Positions 10,879 to 21,561 of a DNA stretch of 33,976 nucleotides are shown in pieces. The position numbers were made by a program, and so were the translations under genes. The notes beneath the pieces are model-generated. The model was given only the letters and a program-made list of their open reading frames with translations, was not told where the DNA came from and did not search any database. Position 1 is the stretch's first letter, and each line of letters opens with the position of its first letter. Source of the stretch: an uncultured Gammaproteobacteria bacterium (GTDB lineage Bacteria > Patescibacteriota > Microgenomatia > JAMCZE01); contig CAZRUW010000099.1 in the NCBI GenBank assembly GCA_964603445.1, positions 1 through 33,976 on the forward strand. The letters run 5' to 3'.

Positions 10879-10897
10879 AGGTTTTAAGTGACTTAAG

Positions 10898-11440
10898 TTA
10901 CATAGGGCTCTTAGGAATTTTCTTGCTTCTTTTTCCCGGTTCTTTTTCTTTCATCTCGCCACTTTGATCTTTTGTCTCGTTCTTTGTAGTTTTGTTTACC
11001 GGTCTTAGCCTTCTTAAGGCTTCCATTGTAGCATAGACGTTATTAGCTTGATTGTTTGTCCCTAACACTTTGCTGGAAATATCTTTAATCCCGGCGGCAT
11101 TAGCCACAGCCCTGACAGCACCACCGGCAATAACGCCGGATCCCGGCGGGGCGGGCATCAAAAGAACCTTGGCCGCTCCCACTTTGACCAGAACTTGATG
11201 CGGAATAGTTGTGCCCTTCATTGGAACAGTCAGCAAGTGTTTCTTGGCATAGGTAACCGCCTTTTGGATCGAGCTTTGGACTTCGGGGCCTTGACCCAAA
11301 CCAACGCCGACACGGCCCTTCTTATCTCCAACGACCACTAAAACGCTGAAGCCGATCTGGTTTCCCCCGGCCGTTTTTTTGGACACACGATTGACCTGGA
11401 CAACTTTTTCTTCGAATTCTTTTGGCTCCTGTGAATACAT
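10898..11440 (-). CDS. rpsE: 30S ribosomal protein S5
   Basis: Contains VVVGDKKGRVGVGLGQG...APPGSGVIAGG. It has a ~35-aa Lys/Glu-rich C-terminal tail. Confidence 0.95.
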   Translation of the reverse strand: MYSQEPKEFEEKVVQVNRVSKKTAGGNQIGFSVLVVVGDKKGRVGVGLGQGPEVQSSIQKAVTYAKKHLLTVPMKGTTIPHQVLVKVGAAKVLLMPAPPGSGVIAGGAVRAVANAAGIKDISSKVLGTNNQANNVYATMEALRRLRPVNKTTKNETKDQSGEMKEKEPGKRSKKIPKSPM

Positions 11441-18864: not shown

Positions 18865-19470
18865 TCAAGCCTTTTTTATTCTTAAGAAAGTATTCCTCCC
18901 TCCGGGAACAAGTCCTTTAATTAACAACAAATTTTCTTCCGGTTTGACCGCAAAAATTTCAAGATTGGGAACAGTTGTTTGGGTATTTCCCATGTGTCCG
19001 GCCATTCTTTTGCCTTTGTAGACTCGGCCCGGGGTGGTGGTTTGGCCAATAGATCCGGGGTGGCGCAGCCTGTCTGATTGGCCGTGAGTTTTTGGCCCGC
19101 CAGCAAAGCCGTGGCGGCGAACCACACCCTGAAAGCCTTTACCCTTAGTTGTTCCGGTGACTTTGACCTTATCCCCGGAGTTAAAAACGTCGGAGATGGT
19201 TATTTTTTCTCCGACGGGTTTGTTTTCGAAATTCATTTCTCGGATATATTTAGGGGAAATTTTTTCAGGCTTGCCCTGGACGGAGTCGAAGGGGAGGTTT
19301 TTGAGAAGGCCGGTGAGGGGTTTAGAGAGGGTTTTTTTGTGGCCAAAAGCAACTTGTCTATTATTAACCACAATCATCGGTTCCACTTTGACCATGGTAA
19401 TCGGCCACCGTCGTCCAACGGAGTCATAATCCTGTGATTGACCAAGCTTGAAACCGTAAAATGTATCCAT
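18865..19470 (-). CDS. rplC: 50S ribosomal protein L3
   Basis: Contains GKGFQGVVRRHGFAGGPKTHGQSDRLRHPGSIG. I chose the ATG at 19468-19470; the track extension MAPSGAIFLS is a read-through of the terminator-like hairpin. Confidence 0.93.
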   Translation of the reverse strand: MDTFYGFKLGQSQDYDSVGRRWPITMVKVEPMIVVNNRQVAFGHKKTLSKPLTGLLKNLPFDSVQGKPEKISPKYIREMNFENKPVGEKITISDVFNSGDKVKVTGTTKGKGFQGVVRRHGFAGGPKTHGQSDRLRHPGSIGQTTTPGRVYKGKRMAGHMGNTQTTVPNLEIFAVKPEENLLLIKGLVPGGRNTFLRIKKA

Positions 19471-19473
19471 AGA

Positions 19474-19498
19474 CAAAAAAATAGCCCCGGATGGGGCC
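19474..19498 (-). terminator. terminator/attenuator-like hairpin immediately upstream of the rplC ATG
   Basis: The minus strand reads GGCCCC-AUCC-GGGGC-UAUUUUUUUGUCU-AUG. The stem is 5 GC pairs and is followed by a 7-U run. Confidence 0.55.
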
Positions 19499-19562
19499 AT
19501 CAGGCTTCCCTACATCCGACTAAGTCAGTTAGTGAGTTTAGGGCTTACTAACATGTAGGGGA

Positions 19563-19592
19563 ATTATACCCCACGGGGTTAGGGGATTGCAA
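19563..19592 (-). promoter_or_regulatory. candidate promoter TTGCAA-N18-TATAAT in the rpsJ-rplC spacer
   Basis: On the minus strand, TTGCAA is at 19587-19592 and TATAAT at 19563-19568. The hexamers and spacing are identical to the candidate upstream of the tuf leader. Confidence 0.55.
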
Positions 19593-19719
19593 GGGCGGAG
19601 AGAAAAAATTTGGTCAGCAGTCGGTTATTTAGGCTCTAACCTTTCCCTTTGGAGAAATAACTATTACTGTGCCAAAGAATGGGTCTACTAACGTTTGAGT
19701 GCCATCAGACTGAAGACTA

Positions 19720-20028
19720 CTACATTTTAATTTCGATGTCTACCCCCGCCGGGAGTTCCAGGTGCATGAGGGAATCAATGGTTTTGTCGGTGGGTTCGAT
19801 AATGTCGATGAGACGTTTGTGAACTTTGATCCAGAAGTGCTCCTGGGAATCTTTATCAGTGAAAGGTGATTGACCAACAGTGATGAGGCTTTTTTCAGTG
19901 GGAAGAGGCACGGGACCAACAACCTTGGCGCCGGTACGAACGGCAGTGTCAAGAATTTGCTGGCAGGTAGAGTCCAGAACGCGGCCGTCGTAGGCCTTGA
20001 GCCGGACGCGAATTCTTCCTTTCGGCAT
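19720..20028 (-). CDS. rpsJ: 30S ribosomal protein S10
   Basis: Contains IRVRLKAYD...VGPVPLPT and is 102 aa. Confidence 0.95.
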
Positions 20029-20134
20029 TTGTCAAAAGGTCCTTTACCCTAAGGCCCAAGTCCAAAGGGCAAGTTCCACTTTCAAAGAGCAAAGTGTAAG
20101 TAACTTAAGTTACTTAAGAATCTTAAGGAACTTA

Positions 20135-21322
20135 TTAGGCAATAATTTTTGTCACGGCACCGGCCCCAACTGTTTTACCGCCTTCGCGGATGGCAAAACG
20201 CATGCCGTCCTCCATGGCGACAGGCTGGATTAATTTGACCTTCATTTTGGCGTTGTCGCCCGGCATGACCATCTCCACACCTTCCTGCAAGGTCACTTCA
20301 CCCGTCACATCCGTGGTGCGGATGTAGAACTGTGGCCGGTAACCGGAAAAGAACGGGGTGTGCCGCCCGCCCTCTTCTTTGGCCAGGATATAGACCTGGG
20401 CTTCAAACTCAGTGTGGGGGGTGATTGACCCGGGTTTGGCGATAACCTGGCCCCTTTCAACCTGCTCCTTTTCGATGCCCCGAAGCAAAAGGCCGACGTT
20501 ATCGCCAGCTTGACCTTCGTCAAGTTGTTTTCGGAACATTTCAACCCCGGTAACAACAGTTTTCTGGGTCGGTTTGAGGCCAACAATTTCGACCTCCTCA
20601 TTGACTTTAACGACACCGCGCTCAATTCGGCCCGTGACGACAGTTCCGCGTCCCTTGATGGAAAAGACGTCCTCAATGGGCATGAGGAAGGGTTTATCCA
20701 GCTCGCGAACCGGGGTAGGAATATAGCTGTCAACGGCATCCATGAGTTCCATAATGTGCTTTTCCTCTTCCGGGTCACCTTCAACAGCTTTAAGAGCTGA
20801 CCCTTTAATCACCGGGGCTTTTTCGCCGTCAAAACCATATTTAGTCAAGAGTTCCCGGACCTCAACCTCGACAAGATCAAGAAGTTCCTTATCGGTAACC
20901 ATGTCAACCTTGTTAAGGAAGACAACAATAGCCGGGACATTAACCTGTTTTGCCAACAGCAAATGCTCCCGGGTTTGAGCCATGGGACCATCAGCGGCGG
21001 AAACCACCAGGCTGGCACCGTCGACCTGAGCAGCGCCGGCGATCATGTTTTTGATGTAGTCGGCGTGGCCCGGCATGTCAATGTGGGCATAGTGTCTTTT
21101 GTCGGTTTCGTATTCGACGTGGGCGATGTTAATGGTGACGCCACGGGCTTTTTCTTCAGGAGCGCTGTCAATGTCCTCGTAATTCATCGCCTTGGCGAAG
21201 CCTTTTTTGGCGAGAACCTTAGTGATGGCTGAAGTGAGGGTAGTTTTACCGTGGTCGACGTGACCCATGGTCCCAATGTTAACGTGGGGTTTGTCACGGA
21301 TGAATTTTGCTTGATCAGCCAT
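20135..21322 (-). CDS. tuf: elongation factor Tu
   Basis: Has the GTPase motifs [18 protein letters not shown] and NKVD, and is 395 aa. Confidence 0.97.
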
Positions 21323-21375: not shown

Positions 21376-21540
21376 AAACTTCTTTGGACTGAAAGTCCAA
21401 AGTCTTCCCCGGAAGTTTAATGAAGCTCACGGAAACTCTGGCATCACTAAACGGCACTTTTTGCCTTCGGCAGAAGTTTTAATCTGTTCGCATTTACCTC
21501 TTGTCTAAAGACAAGAGTTTCCTGCGAGTTGATTATAAAA
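21376..21540 (-). promoter_or_regulatory. structured leader element, copy B (fusA|tuf spacer)
   Basis: It is the paralogue of 14451-14619, with the same conserved blocks and covarying helices. A further 53 nt separate it from the tuf ATG. Confidence 0.65.
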
Positions 21541-21561
21541 TAGCCTCGTTAACCTTTGCAA
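21532..21561 (-). promoter_or_regulatory. candidate promoter TTGCAA-N18-TATAAT for tuf
   Basis: On the minus strand, TTGCAA is at 21556-21561 and TATAAT at 21532-21537. The -10 box coincides with the conserved end block of the leader element. Confidence 0.55.

Follow-up and report, generated by a model that had tools for sequence, protein, structure and literature searches.

A conserved promoter-leader-terminator module in front of rplC is a candidate transcription attenuator in Microgenomatia

We analysed a 33,976-nucleotide (nt) stretch of DNA, contig CAZRUW010000099.1 (hereafter the window), from an uncultured bacterium of the class Microgenomatia, in which the genes for ribosomal proteins S10 (rpsJ) and L3 (rplC) are separated by a spacer that carries a promoter, a short leader and an intrinsic terminator. 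Judged by its sequence, this module is most likely a cis-acting transcription attenuator of the ribosomal protein (r-protein) operon that begins with rplC, and, as the module is common to every sampled relative, it most likely sets the extent to which the main r-protein operon is transcribed. The leader itself very probably works as a switch between a terminator and an antiterminator, and we put at roughly 40% the probability that the input to this switch is ribosomes translating a mini-open reading frame (mini-ORF) that opens the transcript. By sequence the leader forms a new family within a known regulatory design, and its twist is a leaderless mini-ORF before an r-protein operon. The question that it addresses is how reduced, uncultured bacteria of the candidate phyla radiation (CPR) balance r-protein synthesis; described r-protein leaders are mostly narrowly distributed and none is from CPR. 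The element is compact, at about 85 nt, and offers defined helices, natural compensatory variants and the mini-ORF.

A conserved leader directly upstream of rplC

The leader core, nearly invariant within the family, lies in the 140 nt before rplC and reads AAUGUUAGUnnGCCCUAAACUCACUAAC-loop-GUUAGUCGGAUGUAGGG; a GC hairpin and a U run come after it. A covariance model of this 55-nt core, termed R1, found one match in the window's own genome and exactly one in each of 16 genomes of the order, and in all 16 the match lies directly upstream of rplC. When R1 was run against 143 class genomes outside the family it returned nothing convincing, and Rfam 15 gave no match at the gathering threshold over the whole window, with chance-level hits alone on the spacer at E up to 10. 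Scanning metagenome contigs for the pattern yielded seven distinct leaders (L111, an eighth match, repeats the leader of genome G014), and contigs encoding L3 homologues added 10 new ones; the core was seen on 18 metagenomic contigs. Duplicates were not counted (L269 equals the G008 leader and L087 the G001 leader), and the set used comprises 33 distinct leaders in total.

The leader remains before rplC when a phosphoglucomutase gene stands upstream instead of rpsJ (L184, L185, L266, L267) and when a reverse-transcriptase (RVT_1) gene lies directly upstream of the promoter (L183, a metagenome contig, positions 1041-1132). It is likewise still at rplC in the genomes G007, G006 and G005, where rpsJ is 1.3-2.6 kb away or on another contig. 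Because the leader is always found directly before rplC whatever lies upstream, we conclude that the module belongs to rplC and not to rpsJ. A preliminary description of this locus had recognized the layout of an attenuator, and this layout proved to be conserved in every genome of the family and to travel with rplC. Its premise that S10 and L3 genes are normally adjacent fails in this lineage, since class-wide spacers of 52-1100 nt are the rule. The spacer falls in this range in 30 relatives, or rplC is not found within 1.5 kb of rpsJ, indicating that a long spacer is a lineage trait and no oddity of the window genome.

The TTGCAA-N18-TATAAT promoter named in the preliminary description is present, and its position is conserved. 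In 32 of 33 leaders a -10 hexamer, usually TAnAAT, stops 6-9 nt short of the start codon of the leader. Most related leaders also have a TTGnnn, with 17-18 nt between it and the -10 box, and in relatives with short spacers the -35 box falls within rpsJ. Promoter-like sites as a class are not enriched in the region (12 found versus 10.8 expected). From the position of the -10 box, the predicted transcript should start at the AUG at 19554 or 1-2 nt before it. A second TTGCAA-N18-TATAAT with the same hexamers and spacing is located before tuf at 21532-21561; the spacers upstream of tuf and of rplC share no sequence beyond this promoter.

On the RNA strand, the AUG at 19554 is followed by AUGUUAGUAAGCCCUAAACUCACUAACUGACUUAGUCGGAUGUAGGGAAGCCU, the terminator hairpin, GUCU and the rplC AUG at 19470. 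The hairpin GAUGGCCCC-AUCC-GGGGCUAUU (19501-19480), which runs into seven U residues (U7, 19481-19475), ranked first among the terminator-like sites in an 11-kb scan. A GC hairpin with a U run had been reported here before; it is present, recurs in all related leaders, and ends 4 nt, not 3, before the rplC AUG. The distance from the U run to the rplC AUG is 4-10 nt in most family members and about 30-140 nt in four (L005, L012, L018/L037 and L179). Terminator loops within the family are narrowly constrained to AUCC, AUCG, AGCC and UCC.

The conserved fold upstream of the terminator is one irregular stem made up of an outer helix (P1), an extension (A27-U52, C29-G50, U30-G49) and an inner hairpin (P2, ACUAAC/GUUAGU). 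On the R1-fitted alignment of 30 leaders, 90.7% of P1/P2 cells are paired and 7 of 14 pairs change on both sides. None of 500 shuffles reached any of five measures, on an alignment that, being model-fitted, leans toward P1/P2. Compensatory changes in P1 are CUCUA/UAGAG (L045) and GUCUA/UAGAC (L266); those in P2 are GCUA/UAGC, GCCAA/UUGGC (L118), GUUACU/AGUAGC (L044), ACUAGC/GCUAGU (L267) and ACUAAA/UUUAGU (L268). The extension pair A27-U52 is replaced by G-C in L181, and the internal-loop bases AAACUC and GGAUG are nearly invariant. The leader of L183 has a 36-nt in-frame hairpin insertion between AAACUC and P2.

Comparison of the relatives' spacers for conservation and covariation was favorable to the preliminary description, in that the leader is kept in 16 of 16 genomes, seven pairs covary and the hairpin with its U run is never absent. 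The structure it had drawn fared unevenly. An 8-bp stem (19560-19553 with 19515-19508) does exist in the window, and among the relatives only one or two close ones share it. It has its 5′ arm at, or upstream of, the start predicted in that description (19556), and the real outer helix is CCCUA/UAGGG. Alternative hairpins, in which ACUAA pairs with either of two UUAGU copies, are present and match the conserved P2 and a 5′ competing helix described below. The antiterminator that uses the terminator loop and the mini-ORF at the 5′ end of the transcript had no place in that description.

Alternative helices, the mini-ORF and a proposed mechanism

The leader has two alternative pairings (Table 1). 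In the first, a segment near the 5′ end competes for the 5′ strand of P2, and across leaders 90.9% of the cells of this 5′ competing helix are paired. Divergent members are aligned poorly by R1 at their 5′ ends, and competing helices are found there in other registers, namely AGUAAU:GUUACU (L044), GAGUUU:AAACUC (L044, L045 and L267), GGUGA:UCACU (L266) and AGACAC:GUGUCU (L091). A pseudoknot of the 5′ segment with the P2 loop was considered and rejected, as it fits some sequences and is incompatible with the tetraloop members, whereas the competing helix fits all.

In the second, a segment with GGAUG and the 3′ strand of P1 is complementary to the 5′ arm and loop of the terminator. We found that GGAUGUAGGG pairs with the terminator arm and loop of its own leader at a mean of -7.65 kcal/mol, compared to -4.18 kcal/mol for 52 terminators from other class families (Mann-Whitney p = 3e-9, a value that is overstated as kin are not independent). 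The base U52 is changed in four leaders, and a matching change in the terminator loop occurs in two of the four, giving GGACG:CGUCC (L181) and GGAAG:UUCC (L038).

Leaders were also folded only up to the terminator loop, which mimics the point at which the polymerase decides. In most of 32 sequences the minimum-energy structure was then the 5′ hairpin plus the antiterminator, and full-length leaders folded as P1/P2 plus the terminator. The energies in the window are -8.9 kcal/mol for the antiterminator, -8.4 kcal/mol for P1/P2, -3.4 kcal/mol for the 5′ hairpin and -14.7 kcal/mol for the terminator. The near-equal energies of antiterminator and P1/P2 indicate a finely poised switch.

All 33 leaders have a start codon (31 AUG and 2 GUG) followed by a short ORF, with start and frame kept in 32. 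The window's peptide is MLVSPKLTN*; relatives encode MLVGPKLAN*, MLLSPKLTNSR*, MVSKPKLTN* (L179), MLVSPRLTN* (L181), MIREFPKLVT* (L044), MFEFPKLTSFS* (L267) and MVMSKLTKA* (L266), and L183 has a 21-codon form that runs through its inserted hairpin. Six lineages carry insertions or deletions between the start codon and CCU-AAA-CUC, and the frame is kept in five of the six (binomial p ~0.02), by +3 in L044, +6 in L091, -3 in L266, -3 in L268 and a +1/-1 pair in L179. The stop codon is always in the P2 loop or is the UAG of the P2 3′ strand, and lies 5 nt (13 leaders) or 9-11 nt (17 leaders) upstream of GGAUG. We found no regulatory codon runs in the leader peptides (MLVSPKLTN, MVSKPKLTN, MFEFPKLTSFS and others).

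The mini-ORF has no Shine-Dalgarno sequence, and the position of its AUG after the -10 box matches a genome-wide spacing peak. In the window's own genome (G000), the spacing from TAnAAT to the first in-frame ATG of 1275 ORFs of at least 100 amino acids has a sharp maximum at 6 nt (36 cases), and spacings of 7-10 nt account for 8-14 cases each against a background of about 2. Leaderless mRNAs thus seem to be frequent in G000, which, like the lack of Shine-Dalgarno sequences at the window's r-protein genes, would be in line with translation of such an ORF.

The layout is evident from sequence and conservation. A sigma-70-type promoter precedes a leader of about 85 nt that can adopt two mutually exclusive sets of helices. 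The ON set consists of the 5′ hairpin GUUAGU:ACUAAC and the antiterminator GGAUG-UA-GGG:CCC-CAUCC, and the OFF set of P1 (CCCUA:UAGGG), P2 (ACUAA:UUAGU) and the terminator with its U7. The nine-codon ORF overlaps the 5′ strand of each of P1, P2 and the competing helix, and ends in the P2 loop. Based on these features we suggest the following mechanism. By default, a nascent leader without a ribosome would form the 5′ hairpin and the antiterminator, resulting in readthrough into rplC. A ribosome initiating at the leaderless AUG would block the 5′ hairpin, and once at the stop codon its footprint, reaching about 12-14 nt downstream of the A site, would cover GGAUG so that no antiterminator could form. 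The terminator would then form, and after release of the ribosome P1/P2 would lock the OFF state. The predicted outcome is negative feedback from free ribosomes, or translation capacity, onto r-protein transcription. If ribosomes do set the switch, this would be a direct feedback of translation capacity on r-protein transcription, unlike the L4 paradigm of E. coli.

Several points weigh against this mechanism. We infer the direction of control, in which translation turns transcription off, from footprint geometry and folding energies alone. Transcripts that read in from tuf-rpsJ would not be leaderless, and two leaders use GUG, a poor leaderless start codon. In L182 a +1 indel breaks the frame and leaves the 5-codon MVSRP*, and the frame-conservation statistic is built on six non-independent events. 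Covariation in the 5′ competing helix was not significant when assessed on the model-fitted alignment. At CCU AAA CUC the wobble bases are invariant, and variation in the mini-ORF is not concentrated at third codon positions, indicating that RNA constraints dominate and that the peptide itself is probably unimportant; most of the conservation of the mini-ORF could follow from RNA constraints.

Other explanations for the conserved leader

The same RNA switch might instead respond to an r-protein encoded in the operon (uL23, uL22, uL4 or uL3), which would bind the P1/P2 form or the 5′ segment and favor the terminator, giving autogenous control by rRNA mimicry. This is the main rival, and we consider it somewhat unlikely. 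Several observations speak for it. The sequence GUUAGUnGGCCCUAA agrees at 14 of 15 bases with the 23S domain III junction before helix H52 in genome G008, where the Rfam large-subunit consensus reads GGGUuAGuCGggaCCUAAG-[H52]-CGAUGG, and in a strict ungapped test 1 of 300 dinucleotide shuffles scored as high. The H49-H53 region of 23S is seeded by uL23 (PMC9935924), and H51 contacts uL23, H50 contacts uL22 and H52 contacts bL34 (bioRxiv 10.1101/2024.05.08.593220). Both rplW and rplV are in the operon, and their products uL23 and uL22 contact the matched 23S region. The near invariance of the internal-loop bases AAACUC and GGAUG also counts in favor of an r-protein input.

However, a lenient gapped alignment to rRNA was not significant (42 of 200 shuffles as high), the 3′ half of the leader is out of register with H52, and the 23S site is not recovered by R1. 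In L044, L045, L091, L266, L267 and L268 the rRNA-like 5′ segment is lost while the ORF and a competing helix are both kept. None of the r-leader models in Rfam matches, and there is no similarity to the family's own 16S, the S8 site included, on which ground mimicry of the S8 site was rejected. An r-protein input also leaves the invariant start codon, the fixed distance from the -10 box and the frame-keeping indels unexplained; ribosomes translating the mini-ORF remain the input that we prefer. An apparent second R1 match in the 23S of G011 falls within an insert and was discarded. As to the rRNA genes themselves, the 23S of G008 (L171) is 3.6 kb long and has inserts, no 23S was detected in the window's own assembly, and on contig C27 of G000 (L170, ~1380-1600) the 16S departs from the canonical sequence after AAGUCGU, apparently by an insertion before its 3′ end.

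The module might alternatively be an unregulated, leaky terminator behind a promoter, which insulates rplC from tuf-rpsJ transcription at a fixed level while the helices serve RNA stability or processing only. This explanation gains from the observation that 50 of 78 genomes of other class families have a terminator-like site next to rplC whatever the leader sequence, and from the presence of the terminator within the full-length minimum-energy fold. A fixed leak, however, needs neither a nearly invariant 55-nt core nor a loop complementary to GGAUG, a three-way compensation as in L181 or a conserved 5′ competing helix, and we regard it as improbable.

It is likewise improbable that the switch responds to some other input, such as the initiating nucleoside triphosphate or ppGpp, a small molecule, a tRNA, or pausing dependent on NusA or NusG. 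With antiterminator and P1/P2 close to iso-energetic, the leader would be sensitive to any small bias. Against such inputs, the fold is one irregular stem without a junction resembling a ligand pocket, no Rfam riboswitch or T-box model matches, and the features of the ORF are left unexplained.

Because it has its own promoter and terminator, the unit could be read as a small RNA gene in its own right, about 80 nt long, that only happens to adjoin rplC, and the terminated product would be a stable structured RNA. We judge this very unlikely, as in most members only 4-10 nt separate the unit from the rplC AUG and no other conserved promoter of rplC is found, even where rpsJ is not upstream, so that readthrough would be obligatory for an essential operon. 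Finally, the reading of the leader as a copy of a small mobile element or a chance arrangement has next to no standing, and the mobile element was rejected because the leader is single-copy in its own genome by R1 and by BLAST of the spacer, which found no second copy in the 0.98-Mb assembly, and because each of the 16 relatives has exactly one, at a constant location.

Related systems, class context and the locus

The design of the leader is that of the leader-peptide attenuators (trp, his, thr and pheA, pyrBI and the antibiotic-sensing leader ORFs), which likewise have a promoter, a tiny ORF over the first of several exclusive helices, an antiterminator and a terminator. The rplC leader differs in that it has no regulatory codon run or amino-acid logic, in that its ORF is leaderless, at the very 5′ end of the transcript, and in that an r-protein operon is controlled. 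Its extra 5′ competing helix makes a four-helix cascade, and translation is predicted to favor termination.

The E. coli S10-operon leader is subject to L4- and NusA-dependent attenuation plus translational control. It is alike in that termination in a 5′ leader controls transcription into rplC-rplD-rplW-rplB. The E. coli leader lies upstream of rpsJ, whereas the rplC leader comes after rpsJ and moves with rplC, and the two share no similarity of sequence or structure and no Rfam match. To our knowledge neither antiterminator nor mini-ORF logic is part of the E. coli leader. The link to L4 drawn in the preliminary description is thus an analogy only. In Firmicutes r-leaders with terminators, such as the L20 leader of the Bacillus subtilis infC operon (RF00558), binding of the protein to an rRNA-like fold lets a terminator form. 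The rRNA likeness of the rplC leader, in contrast, is partial and not family-wide, no model matches it, and it has a mini-ORF.

The only published leader candidate that we found directly before rplC is archaeal, the L4-Archaeoglobi r-leader candidate upstream of rplC, rplD, rplW and rplB; the Firmicutes and E. coli S10 leaders precede rpsJ (PMC7247131). The structure of L4-Archaeoglobi is unrelated to that of the rplC leader, in which cmscan gave no match to it.

Across the class, the 50 of 78 genomes mentioned above have the terminator-like site in the 60 nt before rplC, and further upstream in the same genomes (loci L186-L265) the count falls to 1-5 per 60 nt. Many genomes of other families have a -10 box, an AUG 8-14 nt later and an ORF of 5-12 codons before rplC, and the antiterminator-terminator logic of CGGAU...GGG with CCC-AUCCG is common to several families of the class. 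A ribosome-set design may therefore be widespread, given how often terminators abut rplC. In a bolder reading, which we consider rather less likely than not, the leader would be a free-ribosome sensor that throttles about 25 r-protein genes by spare translation capacity, and versions of the design without sequence similarity (a promoter, a tiny ORF or SD-like box, and a terminator next to rplC) would take the place of L4-type autoregulation in much of the class.

About a quarter of the genomes of other families share another conserved rplC leader, AUGGAGGUGA ... GUGCCUCCnGGCAC with a U run, which has no Rfam match. In it, a -10 box is followed after 8-14 nt by an SD-like AUGGAGGUGA, then by a GGCAC box and the terminator GUGCCUCCnGGCAC with UUUUUGGUGG, and the CCUCC of the terminator loop could pair with the GGAGG box. 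It was found at L187, L190, L198, L204, L206, L234, L238, L254 and other loci. In 19 of 80 genomes one of the words ATGGAGG, TGGAGGT or GGAGGTG stands in the 220 nt that precede rplC, and those inspected had the full layout.

Table 1. Features of the rpsJ-rplC region of the window, in the order of transcription
Feature	Position	Strand	Remarks
rpsJ (S10)	19720-20028	-	Last gene of the fusA-tuf-rpsJ block; ORF and translation
rpsJ-rplC spacer	19471-19719	-	249 nt
Non-conserved part of spacer, rpsJ stop to -35 box	19593-19719	-	127 nt of unremarkable sequence
-35 hexamer TTGCAA	19587-19592	-	Consensus scan; N18 to -10 box
-10 hexamer TATAAT	19563-19568	-	Consensus scan; predicted transcript start ~19554-19556
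Mini-ORF AUG UUA GUA AGC CCU AAA CUC ACU AAC UGA (MLVSPKLTN*)	19525-19554	-	Effectively leaderless; AUG 8 nt after -10 box
Segment A, GUUAGU, 5′ competitor	19547-19552	-	Pairs with ACUAAC (19528-19533), excludes P2
P1 5′ strand, CCCUA	19539-19543	-	Pairs with UAGGG (19508-19512); covariation
P2 hairpin	19519-19533	-	ACUAA (19533-19529), loop CUGAC including the mini-ORF stop codon, UUAGU (19523-19519)
Segment B′, C-GGAUG-UAGGG	19508-19518	-	Nearly invariant; pairs with AAACUC/CCCUA or with terminator 5′ arm and loop
Antiterminator partner CCC-CAUCC, terminator 5′ arm and loop	19489-19496	-	Complementary to GGAUG-UA-GGG (19517-19508)
Intrinsic terminator, 9-pair hairpin GAUGGCCCC-AUCC-GGGGCUAUU overlapping U7	19475-19501	-	-14.7 kcal/mol
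rplC (L3)	18865-19470	-	First gene of operon rplC-rplD-rplW-rplB-rpsS-rplV-rpsC-rplP-rpmC onward

All genes in the tuf-rpsJ-rplC part of the window are on the minus strand, in the order fusA, tuf (20135-21322), rpsJ, spacer and rplC. The window's S10 shares 63-92% identity with that of its relatives and is present in 40 of 40. The stretch from the rpsJ stop to the -35 box varies in length from 0 to more than 1300 nt among relatives; in the window it has no repeat elsewhere in the genome, and its predicted fold is no better than that of shuffles.

Gene calling had placed the start of L3 (211 aa, P0001) at the ATG at 19500, inside the terminator hairpin. The conserved N-terminus of L3, MDTFYGFK, begins at 19470, and the extension from 19500 was rejected, as it is not conserved among relatives. 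Gene callers had likewise over-extended rplC into the leader in L180 and L268, and an annotation correction follows wherever rplC has been extended into the terminator. No Shine-Dalgarno sequence was found upstream of rplC, nor at the r-protein genes of the window. The tuf-rpsJ spacer contains an AT-rich palindrome, TAAGTAACTTAAGTTACTTAAG, at 20097-20136, which has a 75%-identical copy 9.2 kb away at 10885-10924 and is possibly another small repeat family.

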